A stretch of DNA of 64,000 bases from a plasmid. The DNA is taken from sequence record NZ_CP015380.1. The stretch is one strand, 5' to 3'. Within the stretch, counting starts at the first letter, position 1. Each line of letters begins with the position of its first letter. The notes under the pieces were generated by a model, which was not told the origin of the DNA, searched no databases, and saw only the letters and a program-made list of their open reading frames with translations. Position numbers and translations under genes: made by a program. Below, one piece after another: positions 2,984 through 32,886 of the stretch.

Positions 2984-3504
2984 TCTAATGAAAAGAAGAA
3001 GTTTCAGCGCAGAATTATCCGTAAATTGCTGAATCGTGTGAGCCAAGTAGCCATCAAGAAGCACGAAGTGTTCCTGATGAATGGGCTCGGTTCGTAAGGT
3101 TATTTATCTGGTGAGCATAAATACGTCAAAAAATGGAGTATGTCGATCCTGAACTGGTGGTTGGCAATGAGTCGTTTTATTATTGAGTTCGGTAATCAGC
3201 TCTAATACGGTGGCACTTGCATAGAATTCTCAATCTAAATTGCGATAATAATCCTTCCATGTGGAAAACCTTGCTATTGAAGCCACCCTTTTAAATATCC
3301 CCTCATTTTTTGCTCTAATTTTTTATTATCCTTTCCGTACTCTACAGCGGAAGACAATCCTTCCAAAACCATCTAGAAAAATCTTAAAAGCAGTAACTAG
3401 AGCATATTTATTATCAGGGATAACAAACTGTTACTCTTTGCTCTCACATTCAGACTTAAATCCTTTCCTTACTAAGATCAATCATTCATATACAGAAATT
3501 TAAC

Positions 3505-5509: not shown

Positions 5510-7984
5510 ATGCTTTATTCACCGAAAACGAAAAAAAATTTACTGGCTGTTTTGATCGTCCTGTTTTGCTACAGCGACAGGGTCACGGCCGATCCTATGG
5601 TGGAATTTAACACCGACGTTTTAGACGCGTCCGATCGTAAAAATGTCGATTTAAAGAGATTCTCATCCGATAACTATGTCGTTCCAGGGAATTATCTTTT
5701 AGATATCCGTGTTAATGGCCAAGCAGTATCACAGCAAAACGTAATCTATCGCGCCACAGCTAATAATGCTGACACCAGCTTTGTCTGCTTGACGCCAGAA
5801 CAGGTCGATTTTCTCGCTTTAAAAAAAGAAGCACAGGAGAAAATACAACACGTTGACCCACAGTGCCTCGACATCAAAGCGATCCCTGGCGTTGAACTCA
5901 ACAACCATGAAGGGATTCTGGATATCACCGTACCGCAAGCATGGATGAAATATAACGATCCTGATTGGGTACCGCCAGAACGCTGGGATGACGGCGTGGC
6001 AGGCTTAGTATTTGATTACAGCCTTTCTGGCCAGATGACTCACCAGCTTAAAGAAGGTGATAGCACACACTCATTGTCAGCCTATGGTCAAACCGGTTTT
6101 AACGCCGGTGCTTGGCGTATGCGTGGTGAATATCAGGCAAATTACGACAATGATGGCCAGCATAATCTTGACTGGAATCAGGTGTATGCCTACCGCCCGC
6201 TGCCAAGTCTGGCGTCAAAACTGACCGTTGGCGAAATCTATCTTAACTCACAGGTTTTTGACACCGTACGCTTCACCGGTATCAACATGATTAGCGATGA
6301 GCGTATGTTGCCGCCAAGCCTGCAGGGCTACGCGCCTGAAATTCACGGTATCGCAAAAAGCAACGCAAAGGTCACCGTTAGCCAAAGTGGCCGCGTTATT
6401 TATGAAACGACCGTGCCAGCGGGACCATTTAATATTCAGGACTTACGCAGTTCTGTGCGCGGTACGTTGGACGTAAAAGTTGAAGAACAAGATGGTTCGG
6501 TTTCGATTTTTCAAGTCAATACCGTCAATATCCCGTATCTCACACGCCCTGGCTATGTGCGCTACAACACCTCTATCGGTAAGCCATCACGCTATAACCA
6601 CCAGTTAGAAGGGCCGGCTTTTTACGTCGGAGATTTTTCATGGGGGATCAGCAATGCATGGTCACTGTACGGAGGCACCATGCTGACGGGTAATGACTAC
6701 AACGCATGGTCTTTAGGTCTTGGCCGCGACCTGAATGTGCTTGGCGCATTATCTGCTGACGTGACGCAATCCATCAGCCGCGTCCCCAATCAAGATAGCC
6801 AAAAAGGGATGTCCTTTAAGCTTAGCTACGCTAAAACCTTCGACGAATATAACAGTGCAATCACCTTTGCAGGCTACCGCTTTTCTCAAAAGACTTTCCG
6901 TTCTCTCTCTCAATATCTTGATGAGCGTTACCAGAAATACGACAACGTGGGTCGAGAAAAAGAGATGTACACCATTACGGGTAATAAAACCTTTTGGGCT
7001 GACAATCCTGACTGGGCGACCACCATGTTTCTTACCTACACCCATCAAAACTACTGGGATCGCAGCGGGCAAGATCGTTACGGAATCACGCTTGGGCGTT
7101 CTTTCCGATTGGCTGGTGTCAATGGCATCACGGCGAACGTATCAGCTTGGCGTTCAGACTATCAGGGCCGACGCGATGACAGTTTTGCCCTCTCGCTCTC
7201 CATCCCGATCGGCGATAGCCGCTGGATGGGCTATGACCTGCAAAACAGCGCAGGCAGCACGACTCAGTTAGCGTCTTATAGCGATAACAGCGACTACAAC
7301 AACCTGTGGCGAGTACGGGCCGGTTTAGGTCAAAACGATCGCGCAGCGATGGACGGTTATTACCAGCATCGCTCTCAGATGGCCGAACTCAACGCTAACT
7401 TGAGTTATCAGCAATCTCGCTATGTTTCTGTCGGCGGCACCATGCGCGGTGGATTTACCGCCACGCAATATGGAGCGGCCTTGCATAACAGCAGTGCGAC
7501 GCTCGATACGGCTCGCATCATGGTGGATACCAGCGGCATCGCCGGTGTTCCTCTTAATGGTAAGCATGCTTGGACCAACAGCCAAGGTGTCGCAGTCGTA
7601 CCTGATGTCGTGAGCTACAACAGTTTTGATACTCGAATCGACGTTGATGCGCTGGATGAGGATATCGAAGCCAGCAAAGCAATTTCGACAACGACGCTCA
7701 CCGAAGGGGCTATTGGTTATCAGCGCTTTGCTGTTGCTCAGGGTGAAAAAATGATGGCACTCATTCGCCTTGCTGATGGTTCTTTCCCTCCGTTTGGTTC
7801 AGAAATCGTCAATCGCGACGGCGTGAGCGTGGCCATGGTGATGGATAACGGTATGGCGTGGATCGCGGGTGTGACTCCAAGGGAAACACTCTCAGCCAAT
7901 TGGAACGGCAAGGGCCAGTGCCAACTGAAAATTCCTGACCATAACCTTAACTCTTCCAAACAATTACTACTGCCTTGCCAGTGA
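5510..7984 (+). CDS. fimbrial outer-membrane usher (PapC/FimD family)
   Basis: 824 aa, signal peptide, typical usher length and motifs, C-terminal Cys pair. Confidence 0.9.
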   Translation: MLYSPKTKKNLLAVLIVLFCYSDRVTADPMVEFNTDVLDASDRKNVDLKRFSSDNYVVPGNYLLDIRVNGQAVSQQNVIYRATANNADTSFVCLTPEQVDFLALKKEAQEKIQHVDPQCLDIKAIPGVELNNHEGILDITVPQAWMKYNDPDWVPPERWDDGVAGLVFDYSLSGQMTHQLKEGDSTHSLSAYGQTGFNAGAWRMRGEYQANYDNDGQHNLDWNQVYAYRPLPSLASKLTVGEIYLNSQVFDTVRFTGINMISDERMLPPSLQGYAPEIHGIAKSNAKVTVSQSGRVIYETTVPAGPFNIQDLRSSVRGTLDVKVEEQDGSVSIFQVNTVNIPYLTRPGYVRYNTSIGKPSRYNHQLEGPAFYVGDFSWGISNAWSLYGGTMLTGNDYNAWSLGLGRDLNVLGALSADVTQSISRVPNQDSQKGMSFKLSYAKTFDEYNSAITFAGYRFSQKTFRSLSQYLDERYQKYDNVGREKEMYTITGNKTFWADNPDWATTMFLTYTHQNYWDRSGQDRYGITLGRSFRLAGVNGITANVSAWRSDYQGRRDDSFALSLSIPIGDSRWMGYDLQNSAGSTTQLASYSDNSDYNNLWRVRAGLGQNDRAAMDGYYQHRSQMAELNANLSYQQSRYVSVGGTMRGGFTATQYGAALHNSSATLDTARIMVDTSGIAGVPLNGKHAWTNSQGVAVVPDVVSYNSFDTRIDVDALDEDIEASKAISTTTLTEGAIGYQRFAVAQGEKMMALIRLADGSFPPFGSEIVNRDGVSVAMVMDNGMAWIAGVTPRETLSANWNGKGQCQLKIPDHNLNSSKQLLLPCQ

Positions 7985-26605: not shown

Positions 26606-27149
26606 AAGCCCTGTTATAGAGGAAAAACGGTGCTATATGGTGAGGCTAAAAGATATTCTGAGCGTGATAAAGTCCTAAACCCCCTAACCATGCTCCGGAT
26701 TTTCGCGCATATACTGTGTACCCTCTTTTTATTAAACCCCAATGGGCTGCTGAAGGCGATTTGTCTCAATGGCCCACGCCAACAAAAAATAATTAATCCG
26801 CTTTGCGATGTTTGGGAAGAGCTGCCGCGCGGACGTTTTCATATATCGATGTGTCGACGGCAATGATAAGATTTCGCGCCTGACCGTTTTATTCGATATC
26901 AGGCAGGGACAGTGACCTCTGCTTGCCCGCGCCGAAAAAACACGCACCGTTGGCGCACGGGAATGCAGCGGTGCTAACGCACCGCATATCTCCCCGTTTC
27001 GTGATGTCAGAGTAGTGTGTTGCGTTGTGTTTCCATACAGCCTATTGCCTATTGCTGTTCTTCTTCCTCTCCATCTTCTTCATCTTCTCCTGAATATACA
27101 TCTTTCTGCTGTAGTGCTTTTTCTCTTTACCTCTTAAAAATCCAAACAA

Positions 27150-27385
27150 CAGCCTATGGGGCACCGAGGGCGTGTGCTGTTCCGGCCCAAGATGACTGAC
27201 ACAACTAGTCGCGCCCTGACTGCGGGCACGCCAAGTTTTACGCAGCCACTCGACGTGTCTGCGCCCATGCGGGGTAGAGCCGCTGCTGTAAGGTCAACAG
27301 CATCGCTTGCTGTGACCTGCTGGTCACGCCGCTTTCACTGCCGGCGAGAGAATGCCGGCGCTAAGGGGCAATGCCGTTTCGCGCC
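27150..27385 (+). repeat. structured leading-region repeat, copy A (Frpo/ssi-like), upstream of ssb
   Basis: About 220 bp, near-identical to 30160-30395. Internal hairpins (GTGACCtgctgGTCAC, CAGCAtcgctTGCTG). GC-rich and non-coding. Confidence 0.45.
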
Positions 27386-27758
27386 CGCGCGTTTCGTCAT
27401 TGCGGCGGGTTTCTGCTCATCAACGCTGGCTGATTTCCCCCCTTTGAGTCCGAACGCCGGGGCTGAGATAACCACAACGCGTCTTGCTGTCCAGGGACGC
27501 AAAAGCCTTTCGCAATAAATTTATGGCGGCCATTTCGCAAGCTTCATTAGACCGCCATAAATTTCCCGCTCACCCCGGACAGCTTCACCACGCTGTGCTG
27601 ATTGACGCCCTTGCGGCGTACGGCTCTCAAACGGGTGAAGGTAACAACCAGCGGGAGTGTGCAGCAGGTCCCCGCAAAACGTCAAAACCGCGGCCCCGGC
27701 AACTCAACGGGTGATGGTTTTTAAAGGCAAAAAATCAACGAATATCAGGAGAGACACT

Positions 27759-28286
27759 ATGGCGAGCAAAGGCGTTAATAAAGTGATTTTAGTGGGACAT
27801 TTAGGCCAAGAACCCGAAGTACGCTACATGCCAAATGGGGGCGCGGTGGCTAATTTATCACTGGCCACCTCAGAAACATGGCGTGATAAGCAATCGGGCG
27901 AACAAAAAGAAAAAACCGAATGGCATCGCGTTGTGGTGTTTGGCAAGTTGGCTGAAATCGCAGGGGAATACCTGCAAAAGGGCTCACAGGTCTATATCGA
28001 GGGGGCTTTGCAAACTCGTAAGTGGACAGACACGCAAGGGAACGAGCGTTACACCACCGAAATTATCGTCAACGTGGGCGGCACTCTACAGATGCTGGGC
28101 AACCGTCTTGAAGCCAACCCAACCCCAGCACCGCAGACCAGCGGTCAGCCACAACAACAGGCAGCAACTCCCACAGCTAAAAAGGCCAGCAAAGTCAAAA
28201 AATCCAAGACCGCCGTACAGCCAGAATCTCAGCCGCAGAGCGGGGACTTCCCGCCGATGGATTTTGACGACGATATCCCATTCTAG
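27759..28286 (+). CDS. ssb: single-stranded DNA-binding protein (plasmid/leading-region type)
   Basis: [39 protein letters not shown]…, Gly/Gln-rich tail, ends DFDDDIPF. Confidence 0.9.
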
Positions 28287-28472
28287 AGTTGACTTGCCCT
28301 GCGAGAGCGGGGCTTAAACAGGAGAAATACTATGTCAGACAATATCGAGGCCAAGCCCTTAAAATCCCTGTCCGATGGCACCTTCACCCGCGAACACGCA
28401 GTAAGCAGTAAGCGAGGTGCCGGATGCTAGGACATCCGGCAGACATTAATCAACACTATCGAGGTATCAACC

Positions 28473-28772
28473 ATGTCAGAGAAGAATACTAAAGCAACCC
28501 GTAATGCGAGTAAAGCGAGCAAAAAATCTCCCCCAATGGCGCAGGCCGAAGCAGCCAACACCGCGCTGCGTGATATTCCCGTTTCTATGGTTAGCGTGAG
28601 TTCACTCGCCCATTCAACGCTGAACGTGCGCAAACAAGCCCCTGATGCTGCTAAATTGGCAGAGCTTGCCGAGAGCATTAAAGCGGTTAGCCTTTTGCAG
28701 AATCTGGTGGCGTTCGAACAGTCAGATAGCCTGTTAACGTCCATCAGTTTGCGGCAACGCAGGCCATCATAG
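28473..28772 (+). pseudogene. ParB-like nuclease-domain protein (leading-region YfjB/YdaB-like) N-terminal fragment, truncated
   Basis: …IPVSMVSVSSLAHSTLNVRK…LAELAESIKAVSLLQNLVA… resembles the ParB/Srx N-domain. It ends after 99 aa, whereas the plasmid homologues are large proteins. Confidence 0.4.
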
Positions 28773-29026
28773 ATGTCGAGCATAAGCAGCTACGCGGCAC
28801 ATAACTCGGACAACATCCTTATGCGCGGGCTTTATTCCGCCACTTACGTGGTGGCGCGATGCGCATCACCGCCAGAGATAGACGAAGAAGATATCTAATG
28901 TATTGGGGATGTCTGTGTCACCACAGGCTAACCTTCATTTCAAAATGGTGAGTGTGTTAGTAAAACTTAGCTCTTAAAATGAATACAGATGTAATACATG
29001 TGAATTATACATGTATTCATTTTCTG

Positions 29027-29320
29027 TTATAAAAGCCGCTTTTGAGCCATCTCATAGGCCTTCTCGGCTTCTCGTTTGCCGACAGCAATCACCCATATAA
29101 CTATCTCATCATCGATAACCTTGTAAATTAGACGAAAGCCTGATGCTCTTAGCTTTATTTTAAAGCAGCCAGCGAGATCTCCATGCAATCTCGCTGATTC
29201 AACGTAAGGGTTTTGCTGCAGTTTTTTTAGCTTCTTTTTGAATTGTTCGCGGACAGTTTTTTCAAGCTTATTCCATTCCTTGAAAGCCCTTTCGTCAAAT
29301 TCAATACTAAAAGTCATCAA
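29027..29320 (-). CDS. relE: RelE/ParE-family mRNA interferase toxin
   Basis: Strong similarity to E. coli RelE (…FDERAFKEWNKL…VREQFKKKL…CFKIKLRASGFRLIYKVIDDEIVIWVIAVGKRE). Confidence 0.85.
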   Translation of the reverse strand: MMTFSIEFDERAFKEWNKLEKTVREQFKKKLKKLQQNPYVESARLHGDLAGCFKIKLRASGFRLIYKVIDDEIVIWVIAVGKREAEKAYEMAQKRLL

Positions 29321-29561
29321 CGTTAACCCTGATCCGTTTGCCCGGATTTTTCATCCTTTCTCTGACGACCGCCAAGATATCAGCATCCTCATCATCTTCA
29401 CTCACCATCACTGAGACTTCAGCAAAAGGCAGTTTTTCGTTCTCTACGACATATCGCAGGAACAGACGAAGTGCATCAGAAGGAGACAGATTCAGTTTTT
29501 CAAAGGCCTGATAGGCATCTTTTTTCAGCTCGTCATCTACGCGGATTTGGATTGTGCTCAT
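29307..29561 (-). CDS. relB: RelB antitoxin
   Basis: MSTIQIRVDDELKKDAYQAFEKLNLSPSDALRLFLRYVVENEKLPF… matches RelB. Overlaps relE. Palindromic operator-like repeats lie upstream at 29600-29700. Confidence 0.85.
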   Translation of the reverse strand: MSTIQIRVDDELKKDAYQAFEKLNLSPSDALRLFLRYVVENEKLPFAEVSVMVSEDDEDADILAVVRERMKNPGKRIRVNVDDF

Positions 29562-29696
29562 TGCAAATACTCCGATAGTTCATGTCCAATTATTATACAC
29601 GCACTACATATGTAATGACAAATGTAGTGCTATATTATCTTGAATACGAATGGGGAATACCTCTTTAATGAATTACATTTGTATTACACGTGTAAT

Positions 29697-29940
29697 CTAT
29701 TTGTGTTTCAATAATTGTGCATAATCACGATGATCGAGCGAGAAGGTCACGACCAACTGTGGCGCGACATCGAGCGCAAATACCTTTAGATAAACTTCGG
29801 TGCTTTCATAACGTTCATGCCCCATATAGGTTTGAACGACCTTAGGCGGAACATGATTGAAGAACAGGTGCATCGCAAAGCTGTGCCTAAATGTTTTTGG
29901 ATTGAGTGTCTGTAAAGCAAATTGTACCCCCTCCTCGGAT
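29697..29940 (-). pseudogene. tyrosine recombinase/integrase C-terminal fragment
   Basis: Minus-strand translation …FRHSFAMHLFFNHVPPKVVQTYMGHERYESTEVYLKV…*. This carries the box II HxxR and the catalytic-Tyr region only. No N-terminal part is present. Confidence 0.6.
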
Positions 29941-30159
29941 GGATTGGATGTTGCTCAACAATAAGCTTTGCCAGGGTGTCCGGTAAACAAACAACGACAA
30001 ACGCTGCTGTGGCTTCGCCACGGCGGCGCTCTTCATTTCACATTATACGGTCTTAAATCCCTTCACCAATAGTCTTCTTAATATCTAGATTTACTCTAGT
30101 TCTCCTGCTGTTCTTACCAACTTACCTATTTCTCGCTTAGACCCAAAAACAAAGCAAAT

Positions 30160-30395
30160 GCCCTTGGGGCACCGAAGGCGTGCGCCGTTCCGACACACGA
30201 CGACTGACACAACTAGTCGCGCCTAAACAAACGGGCACGCCAAGTTTTACGCAGCCACAAAAGGTGTCTGCGCCCATGCGGGGTAGAGCCGTTGCTGGCA
30301 GGTCAACGGCATCGCTTGCTGTGACCTTAAGGTCACGCCGCTGTCACTGCCGGTGATAAAGCCACCGGCGCTAAGGACGCCACGTTTTTAACGTG
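30160..30395 (+). repeat. structured leading-region repeat, copy B (Frpo/ssi-like), upstream of the DUF932::traD ORF
   Basis: Direct repeat of 27150-27385, with the same hairpin-forming segments. Confidence 0.45.
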
Positions 30396-30703
30396 GCGAG
30401 TGTGTGCCTGCGCATTTATCGCCTGATTACCCACGCTCATGCGTTCTTTGCGGAGGGCTGGGTTTAGCACCACCCCCGTTCTAAACACAAAAGAGAATAA
30501 ATGCCGCAAGCGGCCTTTTGTGTTTAGCCCTGGTCTGTCGCAACAACGCCCATTGCCGCAAGGAACTCATCGAGAGATGGCTTAACCATCAGAGTAAGAA
30601 AAAATGCAGCTGGCACACACGAAACGTCAACACCGCCGCTGCAGAATCTATCGAAAGATAGGGAAGCCCGCTCAAGCATTTATTTAAATTTGGAGGTCAT
30701 ACC

Positions 30704-32254
30704 ATGAGACTCGCATCCCGCTTTGGCAATATTAACTCTGTACGTCGCGATCGTCCGTTAACGAATGATGAACTAGCACAATACGTCCCGAGTGTTTTTT
30801 CTGAAGAAAAACATGCGTCCCGTAGTGCGCGATATACCTATATTCCGACTATCACCCTGCTTGATAAATTGCGCGCTGAAGGATTCCAGCCGTTTTATGC
30901 CTGTCAAACCCGTGTACGCGATGAAGATAAGCGCGGTCATACCAAACATCTACTACGTTTGCGTCGTGAAGAAGGGATCGCCATTACGGGAAAGGAAGTG
31001 CCTGAAATTATTCTGCTCAATAGCCATGATGGTTCGAGCAGTTATCAAATGCTGCCGGGAATGTTCCGATTTGCATGCGCCATCCGCTACCTGCACGGCA
31101 TAGAGCGTAACGGCGAACCCTTCACCATCCGTGACTGGATGCGCGGGGTACGTGAAGATGGCAATAACGGTTGGTTGTTTATCTCATCGAATGCCGATAC
31201 TCACGCGTCCCTTAAGCCGGTGATATCGATGTGGCTGTCGTTGGCCATTCGCGGCCTATTGGCGATGGGGGAGAATCGTCAGCGCCGCGTTTGGTTTTTT
31301 GCCGATGAGATACCAACCCTGCATAAACTGCCGGATTTGGTAGAAATCGTGCCCGAGGCGCGAAAGTTCGGTGGTTGCTACGTGTTGGGCTTCCAGTCCT
31401 ACGCCCAGTTGGAAGATATCTATGGCGCCAAAGGCGCTGCCACGCTGTTCGATGTGCTTAATACCCGCGCCTTCTTCCGCTCGCCGAGTAAGCAGATTGC
31501 GGATTTTGCCGCCGGTGAAATCGGTGAAAAAGAGCAGCTCAAAGCTTCCGAGCAATATTCTTACGGTGTCGACCCTGTGCGTGATGGCACCTCGGTGGGC
31601 AAAGACATGGAGCGTGTGACGCTGGTGAGCTACAGCGACATTCAAACCCTGCCCGATTTAACCTGCTATATCACGCTGCCGGGGCCGTACCCGGCGGTGA
31701 AACTGCCGCTGAAGTACCAGACGCGTCCCAAGGTCGCACCGGAATTTATCGCCCGCACTATCGATACCGACGCCGAGACGCACCTGAGTGCCGTACTGGC
31801 CGCTCGTGAGGAAGAAGGACGTGGGATTGCCGAGCTCTTTACCCCTGATGCTGAGACAGCCGAACCCGCCTCGACGGAAAATGAGCCCGTTGCTGAGACA
31901 GCGACTCAAACTCAAACGACACCGCCTGTTACGCCTCTTCGCGAAGAGAGCGCACCGAAGCCAGCACCCAAAACGTCACCTAAGGCAGCTGCCGCATCGA
32001 CAACGGCGGCCAGCGCCACCGCAGCGGCGGTGGTTGCACCGGTCGGCGGCGTAGAGCAAGAACTCGAGGAACATGAAGAGGCGTTACCGCCGGGTATTGA
32101 TAGCCAAGGCGAACTGGTTGATCCGGATGCTTACGAGCGTTGGCAAGCTGAGCATGAGGCTAACGGCCAGCGCACGATGCAACGCCGTGAAGAGGTCAAT
32201 ATCAATCACGGTCAGTCGTCTCTCGATGACGTTGAAGTAGGAGATACATTTTGA
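30704..32254 (+). CDS. chimeric ORF: DUF932 (YfjQ-like) N-terminal 125 aa fused in frame to the C-terminal ~390 aa of an F-type TraD coupling protein
   Basis: Residues 1-125 match YfjQ/DUF932 (…RRDRPLT…[19 protein letters not shown]…[19 protein letters not shown]). The rest matches the F TraD C-terminus as I recall it (…[19 protein letters not shown]…[23 protein letters not shown]…EVNIN…GDTF). Confidence 0.75.
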
Positions 32255-32260
32255 GGGTAA

Positions 32261-32659
32261 CTAGATCCAATCTTCCAGCCGCAGACCAGAAACACGCTCA
32301 AACTCACGTGTATTGTTAGTGACAACGATAAGTCCACAACTCCGAGCATGACCAGCAATCATCAGGTCATAGGGGCCAATAGGTTTACCAAAGCGCGCTA
32401 GCTCAGCCCTAATTTGACCAGAATGTGCGGCTGCATAGCAGTCGTAATTAAGTACGGATAAACGTGCCGTAAAACCTTCAATGATGGCTAAGTTACGCTC
32501 AGGTGCGGTGCTTTTTTCCGCACCATAAATGAGCTCCATTAAAGTCACTGAACTAATACAAAGTTGATGACTGTGGCAATTGAATTTTTCGCGTACAGAC
32601 TCCGGTTTATTTTTAATGGTGAAAATACAAATGTTGGTATCAAGCATGTATTTGAGCAT
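32261..32659 (-). CDS. vapC: VapC PIN-domain toxin
   Basis: MLKYMLDTNICI… PIN acidic residues. 132 aa. Overlaps the upstream antitoxin by 1 bp. Confidence 0.85.
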   Translation of the reverse strand: MLKYMLDTNICIFTIKNKPESVREKFNCHSHQLCISSVTLMELIYGAEKSTAPERNLAIIEGFTARLSVLNYDCYAAAHSGQIRAELARFGKPIGPYDLMIAGHARSCGLIVVTNNTREFERVSGLRLEDWI

Positions 32660-32886
32660 TACAGGGCCTCACGCTCTTGCATTTCAGGTTGTTCGCGCTC
32701 AGACATAAAGTCATCTGTAACCGAATTTCCCTCAAACCAACTATCCCATGATTCTCCGGCTGGCGTAATTAAGCGAGTTCGACCTATAGCAATGATCTCT
32801 ACACGTTTGACATCTTCGGGTAGTGCCACGGCTTTGGGTAAACGAACAGCCTGACTGCGATTGCTGAGGAATACGCTAGTTTCCAT
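32659..32886 (-). CDS. vapB: VapB antitoxin (AbrB/SpoVT-type)
   Basis: 75 aa, METSVFLSNRSQAVRLPKAVALP…, immediately upstream of vapC. Confidence 0.8.
   Translation of the reverse strand: METSVFLSNRSQAVRLPKAVALPEDVKRVEIIAIGRTRLITPAGESWDSWFEGNSVTDDFMSEREQPEMQEREAL

Follow-up and report, generated by a model that had tools for sequence, protein, structure and literature searches.

What are the two GC-rich, hairpin-rich repeats that precede ssb and a DUF932 open reading frame (ORF) on the plasmid of record NZ_CP015380.1? We analysed a 64,000-nucleotide (nt) stretch of this plasmid (hereafter, the window), in which the initial annotation had likened the two repeats to the single-stranded DNA (ssDNA) promoters (Frpo/ssi) of conjugative plasmids. 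Our analysis shows that what was flagged is not the promoter but a conserved, hairpin-rich segment that directly precedes a promoter hairpin; each repeat is very probably the promoter-distal half of a leading-region ssDNA promoter unit. The resemblance first noted holds for the regions, which are the counterparts of Frpo2 (ssb) and Frpo1 (ygeA-DUF932) of F, but not for the repeat itself, since the homology lies at 27362-27719. The repeats (referred to below as modules) and the segments that adjoin them are as follows.

27137-27375, no strand assigned: repeat copy A, a GC-rich array of short hairpins, the module before the ssb promoter unit (repeat search, BLAST, whole-unit fold)
27381-27698, minus strand: long imperfect hairpin A, a class-1 Frpo/ssi homologue before ssb (fold -91.2 kcal/mol, z -5.3)
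27488-27515, minus strand: candidate promoter boxes close to the apex of hairpin A, within its 3' arm, TTGCGA at 27510-27515 and TGGACA at 27488-27493 with a 16-nt spacer (sequence comparison)
30145-30383, no strand assigned: repeat copy B, the same module, before the DUF932::TraD ORF (repeat search, BLAST, whole-unit fold; minus-strand fold z -5.9)
30378-30398, minus strand: a separate small hairpin beside hairpin B (fold)
30400-30620, minus strand: long imperfect hairpin B, of the 'Frpo*' class, before DUF932::TraD (fold -67.1 kcal/mol, z -6.8)

The repeat is ~235 nt long and occurs as two direct copies, about 85-90% identical, with no further copy in the window. The repeat search paired 27223-27347 with 30232-30356 (125 nt, 90%) and 27137-27215 with 30145-30223 (79 nt, 82%), local BLAST of copy A against copy B gave 84.9% across 212 nt, and two core strings of 22 and 26 nt were each found exactly 2 times in the window, with 0 expected from shuffles. 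The high similarity and direct orientation described initially were thus borne out, and the boundaries given then (27150-27385 and 30160-30395) lie within ~15 nt of ours. The GC content is 63% in copy A and 61.5% in copy B, versus 45% for the window. Conserved inverted repeats had also been reported and are present at 27298-27312 (CAGCA-TCGCT-TGCTG, copy A) and at 27312-27327. A 120-amino-acid ORF (27156-27518) lies over copy A; it has no Pfam match, its ATG is missing from copy B, and insertions and deletions separate the two copies. The module is therefore non-coding and the ORF spurious, in agreement with the initial reading. From the end of copy A to the start of ssb at 27759 there are 384 nt.

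Homology to known ssDNA promoters begins where copy A ends. In BLAST searches of the whole units against five known elements, with reference sequences from supplement 4 of Samuel et al. 2024 (Nature 635:186) and their homology threshold of E <= 1e-6, the ssiD-homologous stretch 27362-27719 matched Serratia Frpo'1 with 82.5% identity over 361 nt (E 3e-101) and F ssiD with E values of 9e-19 and 1e-10. Segment A clusters with F ssiD and ColIb ssi1-3, and it folds into a long imperfect hairpin on the transferred strand (T-strand). The control fold of F ssiD (-93.9 kcal/mol, z -9.0) is likewise one long hairpin. The candidate boxes of hairpin A, TTGCGA-N16-TGGACA, are preceded by an A/T-rich tract and line up with TTGCGG-N17-TGGACT of F ssiD and with TTGTGG-N16/17-TGGAC of ColIb; the second hexamer bears little resemblance to TATAAT. 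Hairpin B matched Salmonella Frpo*5 (E 9e-12) and clusters with Frpo*5/7; its homology is confined to these entries, with none to ssiD or ColIb ssi. The two long hairpins are unrelated in sequence (48% identity). When whole units are folded, the long hairpin and the module's short ones arise independently of each other. The location is also that of such promoters: the leading genes lie on the plus strand and point to where oriT sits in relatives (the order is that of F and of pA23BA, a conjugative plasmid of Hafnia alvei), so the would-be transferred strand is the minus strand, which serves as the template for these genes.

The modules themselves gave a different picture. When folded as the initial annotation had suggested, the minus strand formed 5-6 short hairpins and no long stem (z -1.7 for copy A and -5.9 for copy B), and no sigma-70-like hexamer pair with -35/-10 geometry was found in a stem of either module; the long hairpins are in the adjoining segments. 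Homology of the flagged repeat to class-1 Frpo/ssi elements was not detected: no similarity to F ssiD or ColIb ssi1-3 was found in 27150-27360 or 30160-30380, the sole BLAST match within the module stretches being the distal flank of the Frpo*7 entry of Samuel et al. The nucleotide search against leading regions that had also been suggested was thus positive for 27362-27719, which matches ssiD, but not for the module, which matched nothing in the F leading region, including ssp2 (E >= 0.4). A sequence scan of both modules revealed neither a duplex sigma-70 promoter nor an intrinsic terminator, and both were therefore dismissed. Rfam searches of the whole window at gathering thresholds and of 26900-30750 at permissive E-values returned nothing relevant.

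The F plasmid offers an independent view of the same boundary. In F (L002 numbering) ssiD begins at 6267, the functional Frpo2 construct begins at 6356, and the counterparts of two module hairpins, P2 and P5 (see below), are at 6125-6211, which is 58124-58210 of NC_002483. The Frpo2 fragment drove an anti-CRISPR in vivo (Samuel et al. 2024). Because this functional fragment excludes the module counterpart, Frpo2 of F can act without the module. The published Frpo/ssi limits that we checked leave the module out except for its 3' end, namely the P6 region in ColIb-P9 and ~20 nt in F ssiD.

While surveying related units, we noticed that TTGACC-N15-TAGCCG/TACCCC on the transferred strand is common to Hafnia, Klebsiella and Salmonella units. 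As a minus-strand promoter within the module this arrangement, present in some lineages, was rejected: its spacing and second hexamer are poor, it is not in F-type units, and it does not have the Frpo-like stem geometry. In some units AAGGTC, which is TTGACC on the transferred strand, also occurs in tandem, in up to five copies, just 5' of P4 (L088 ~3000-3070, L004 and L076; in the window, 27291-27297).

Is the module conserved in its own right? We collected a family of units from species genomes and metagenomes with a degenerate pattern centred on P5, which yielded 173 units, 131 of them unique, in 47 clusters at 93%. Three of the short hairpins could be followed as follows.

27241-27263 in copy A and 30250-30272 in copy B, no strand assigned: hairpin P2, 5 base pairs (bp), a conserved C/T mismatch and 3-4 bp (family covariation)
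27312-27327 in copy A and 30321-30336 in copy B, no strand assigned: hairpin P5, GTGACC-N4-GGTCAC, reading GTGACC-TGCT-GGTCAC in copy A (family counts)
27340-27359 in copy A, GCCGGC/GCCGGC, and 30349-30369 in copy B, GCCGGTG/CACCGGC, no strand assigned: hairpin P6 (covarying stems)

P2 was counted by an architecture-anchored script, because the MAFFT cross-lineage alignment misplaced it in IncI1-type rows. It is kept in 127 of the 131 unique units, with 97.8% of its pairs Watson-Crick and compensatory changes at seven of the nine pairs; the stem takes the forms CGCAG/CTGCG in Hafnia, CGGAG/CTCCG in F and CCGAA/TTCGG in Klebsiella and IncI1. The P5 stem alternates between GCGACC/GGTCGC and GTGACC/GGTCAC across the family; its variable pair is C-G in 149 cases and T-A in 12, with 12 intermediates, all of which are G.T on the minus strand (C.A on the plus strand). 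P6 covaries within the Hafnia/Klebsiella type. Covariation was compared with shuffle controls that ignore phylogeny: for the 15 distinct P2 stem variants the Watson-Crick fraction was 0.889, versus a mean of 0.645 for partner shuffles that never exceeded 0.80, and for P5 and P6 together 86.6% of cells were paired, versus 28-45% with slid partners, the observed covariation being reached by 0 of 500 shuffles. The P1 region contains a long hairpin in each lineage, with lineage-specific sequence that cannot be aligned between lineages. By sequence comparison, compensatory changes preserve P2, P5 and P6 across lineages, the units compared being of IncF, IncI1, Klebsiella and Hafnia. In other plasmids the P5 loop (27318-27321 and 30327-30330 in the window) reads GTTCC or its reverse complement GGAAC between identical arms; the presence of both loop orientations within identical arms indicates that the hairpin has been flipped in place in some lineages.

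The module is also shared by promoter hairpins that are not related to one another. Full-length matches in PLSDB come from Hafnia plasmids only, and the 3' 90 nt match more than 2,300 PLSDB plasmids, mostly from Klebsiella. In 38 of 40 representative units a long hairpin is formed by the next 380 nt on the T-strand (median span 314 nt, median z -7.7); by sequence, these hairpins make up at least three classes unrelated to one another. Of 14 pairs of copies sharing a contig, 10 showed higher conservation in the module than in the hairpin downstream of it (medians 85% vs 55%), and module identity between copies on one plasmid ranges from 81 to 99%. The module is thus a separately conserved structured element common to different promoter hairpins. 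In Hafnia paralvei ATCC 29927 (contig 65) it precedes a DUF3560-methyltransferase operon and a second ssb (L029 3143-3362 and 5868-6093); the latter gene has a long T-strand hairpin at L029 6085-6385 (z -5.8), of a class unmatched by known Frpo/ssi.

In gene orientation, such a unit would read as a pyrimidine-rich tract, a GC-rich stretch of ~230 nt with the chained short hairpins (the flagged repeat), a ~220-330-nt segment with the long hairpin, and a ribosome-binding site with the gene. In a relative still able to transfer, this long hairpin would arise on the strand entering the recipient, where it would mimic duplex promoter DNA and recruit the host RNA polymerase, leading to early, transient expression of ssb or of the DUF932 operon; complementary-strand synthesis would then flatten the hairpin and silence the promoter. 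This mechanism is established for Frpo1/2 of F and ssi1-3 of ColIb. We infer from the homology that it applies to unit A; for unit B it may apply, to judge only from the fold and the similarity to 'Frpo*' candidates. The module, in turn, may serve as a structural boundary or insulator on the single strand that keeps the promoter hairpin properly folded, or it may shield the promoter from polymerases coming from the 3' side, be it read-through RNA polymerase or complementary-strand DNA synthesis. We consider such a boundary role our leading guess. A broader possibility, which we put forward tentatively and hold to be less likely than its opposite, is that the module is an autonomous, widespread and hitherto undescribed cis-element, an ssDNA insulator, roadblock or priming site placed before unrelated ssDNA promoter classes, that sets how long and how cleanly they fire.

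Several observations weigh against our main interpretation. The conservation of P5 and its flanks is partly by construction, because the family pattern was centred on P5 and units without it were left out. The module of copy A folds weakly (z -1.7), the candidate -35/-10 boxes of hairpin A fit the consensus poorly, and the class of hairpin B is rated low certainty by Samuel et al. The strand test is contradictory: P5 favours the minus strand (12 vs 0), whereas P1 and the ends of P6 have their G.T pairs on the plus strand. Given this disagreement between hairpins, choosing the folded strand by G.T versus A.C asymmetry was dropped; G.T pairs in DNA are weak evidence. Finally, the boundary role is drawn by analogy, its precedent being the roadblock formed by ssp2 of F.

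Two further features of the units are the following.

27020-27136, plus strand: pyrimidine-rich, G-poor tract before module A (sequence); its counterpart before module B is at ~30040-30144
27660-27694 and, in the unit of copy B, 30605-30639, no strand assigned: short motif common to both units, near the genes, reading GCGGTTTTGACGTTTTGCGGGGACC on the minus strand (repeat search)

CTT/CCT-rich tracts occupy the same place before the modules of F, and a Citrobacter unit has (GTTCCT)n there. The counterpart of motif GCGGTTTTGACGTTTTGCGGGGACC in F makes the basal 5' arm of the long hairpin.

The best surviving alternative, unlikely in our estimate, places the action of the module in the RNA of the upstream operon, as a Rho-dependent terminator, pause site or 3'-end stabiliser that insulates the downstream promoter. 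Since all leading genes are co-oriented, upstream transcripts run into the module, and the pyrimidine-rich, G-poor tract lies just upstream of it; the plus-strand G.T pairs in P1 and the six separate early operons described for pESBL (PMC12672017) also fit. However, the tract shows on average only a modest rut-like bias (pyrimidines, C over G), and on the plus strand the P5 intermediates read C.A. The prediction of intrinsic terminators also left the module empty; a separate terminator-like hairpin (30002-30028) is present upstream of copy B.

Somewhat less probable still is that the module primes complementary-strand synthesis, for instance as a PriA-type primosome assembly site or as an ssi of another kind, and so would time the switching-off of the promoter. 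A conserved hairpin cluster on transiently single-stranded DNA, 3' of the promoter on the transferred strand, would be well placed for this, and the P5 intermediates do retain G.T on the minus strand. The P6-P5 linker reads GTGAAAGCGGCG on that strand and includes AAGCGG (27329-27334), the hexamer common to phiX174-type n' sites. Yet a single hexamer is weak evidence and this one is missing from F- and Citrobacter-type units; moreover, priming in F has been assigned to the Frpo transcript itself, and in the parts of the literature at hand no ssi has been mapped to the module segment.

We give equally little credence to the module having no function of its own, being carried along and homogenised by recombination or gene conversion among repeated units. 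The intra-plasmid identity given above is what gene conversion yields, and the dispensability of the module for Frpo2 activity in F is in line with this explanation. On the other hand, a neutral sequence would not be expected to preserve its stems through compensatory changes in distant lineages while its loops and linkers vary, nor to be retained before unrelated promoter hairpins. Least credible of all is that the flagged 220-bp repeat is itself an Frpo-type ssDNA promoter: it is hairpin-rich, lies upstream of leading genes, is duplicated like Frpo1/2 of F and overlaps the base of hairpin A with its last ~20 nt, but 27150-27360 lacks significant similarity to ssiD or ColIb ssi, the repeat has short hairpins only, with no long stem or -35/-10 arrangement, and the F fragment that works in vivo has no counterpart of the module.

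With the repeats placed as the promoter-distal halves of their units, the gene context can be considered. The genes that follow the two units are these.

27759-28286, plus strand: plasmid ssb, the gene served by unit A (Pfam SSB, E 2e-40)
30704-32254, plus strand: DUF932 N-terminus fused to a TraD C-terminus, the ORF after unit B (Pfam matches; mapping to pA23BA)

The sites upstream of ssb and of the DUF932 ORF are therefore as first described, with the refinement that the latter ORF is an in-frame fusion of the DUF932 N-terminus (amino acids 36-126) to the C-terminal half of TraD. The closest record is pA23BA, an IncFII plasmid, with the leading-region order ardA, ssb, DUF905, ParB-N, psiB, psiA, two small genes, DUF932, SLT and oriT, which is also the gene order of F. 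The window keeps parts of the pA23BA leading region at 87-97% identity, with internal deletions, and has lost everything between DUF932 and mid-traD; on comparative grounds, the fusion marks the deletion that took SLT, oriT and the tra operon up to mid-traD. Two ygeA-like small genes that lie between the hairpin and DUF932 in pA23BA (L001 14100-14925) and in F are missing at 30663-30704, and hairpin B consequently adjoins the DUF932 start directly.

The locus is a transfer-dead IncF-like leading-region remnant, as had been recognised initially: neither oriT nor a type IV secretion system is present at the locus, the DUF932::TraD fusion is in place, and past a toxin-antitoxin pair there are TraI fragments, an IS110 and housekeeping-type genes. 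With oriT and the transfer genes gone, the whole promoter-unit arrangement here is a relic. Its retention in a dead remnant had been thought worthy of remark, but nothing special has to be invoked for it: the entire remnant shares 87-97% identity with a live plasmid, and its decay is therefore recent.

Other differences from pA23BA were recorded along the locus. Homology to pA23BA starts abruptly at 26907, 44 nt past the end of ardA in that plasmid, and EAL-domain and YadA-adhesin genes lie upstream; 26907 is therefore a rearrangement junction of the remnant. Where pA23BA has psiA, the window has a minus-strand insertion (28880-29937) with a ParE toxin (29027-29320), a RelB antitoxin (29307-29561) and a tyrosine-recombinase fragment (29697-29873, minus strand); AT-rich inverted repeats at 28976-29023 and 29665-29714 flank the ParE/RelB insertion. 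An IS200/IS605 element (L001 12847-13465) just 5' of copy B in pA23BA is absent from the window. The toxin-antitoxin pair between the traD and traI remnants consists of a PIN-domain toxin (32261-32659) and a MazE-like antitoxin (32659-32886), both on the minus strand.

Frpo-like promoters are on record from thousands of conjugative elements, and the Frpo-type units described here are one more case of a well-studied device. What changes is the annotation: the repeated unit is about twice the length of the element usually annotated, and its upstream half has covarying hairpins of its own and travels with different promoter hairpins. This upstream module does not seem to have been described, as far as the parts of the literature at hand extend. 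Should it govern read-through, priming or the moment at which the strand is converted, the present model of how plasmids time the expression of their anti-defence genes after entry would lack this part; as a sequence handle with which to find such units, it would also outdo the promoter hairpins, which diverge fast.

Among known systems, ssp2 of F (Fraikin et al. 2026, bioRxiv 10.64898/2026.01.09.698686) is like the module a GC-rich, stable leading-region structure on the transferred strand, and it is a single-stranded promoter that also blocks complementary-strand synthesis; it differs in being itself a promoter hairpin, of another sequence class with no sequence similarity to the module. In the collection of Samuel et al., unit A is most like Serratia Frpo'1 and hairpin B like Salmonella Frpo*5. 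The Frpo*5-7 entries there are fixed 400-nt upstream windows, the distal ends of which hold P4-P6 of the module; in the portions of that paper at hand the module is neither singled out nor discussed. As regards ssi1-3 of ColIb-P9/R64, the IncI1 homologues of Frpo, the IncI1-type units of our family bear the same P2 and P5 upstream of the ssi element, and the published 328-nt ssi has hairpins equivalent to P6. As this ssi stops just after P5, P1-P5 are outside the ColIb definition too.

The closest parallel is F itself, with Frpo1/ssiD and Frpo2 (ssp1a/ssp1b) at the same sites, before ssb and before the ygeA-DUF932 operon, in the same orientation and as two dispersed copies. Its class-1 promoters share with unit A both the homology at 27362-27719 and the long imperfect T-strand hairpin. 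Both F units carry class-1 hairpins that are ~90% alike, whereas the two hairpins in the window are unrelated. The repeat before ssb (Frpo2) and ygeA-DUF932 (Frpo1) in F is ~600 nt long and includes ~250 nt of extra upstream sequence with P2 and P5, and it is to this part of the F repeat, outside ssiD and outside the tested Frpo2 fragment, that the two repeats flagged in the window correspond.

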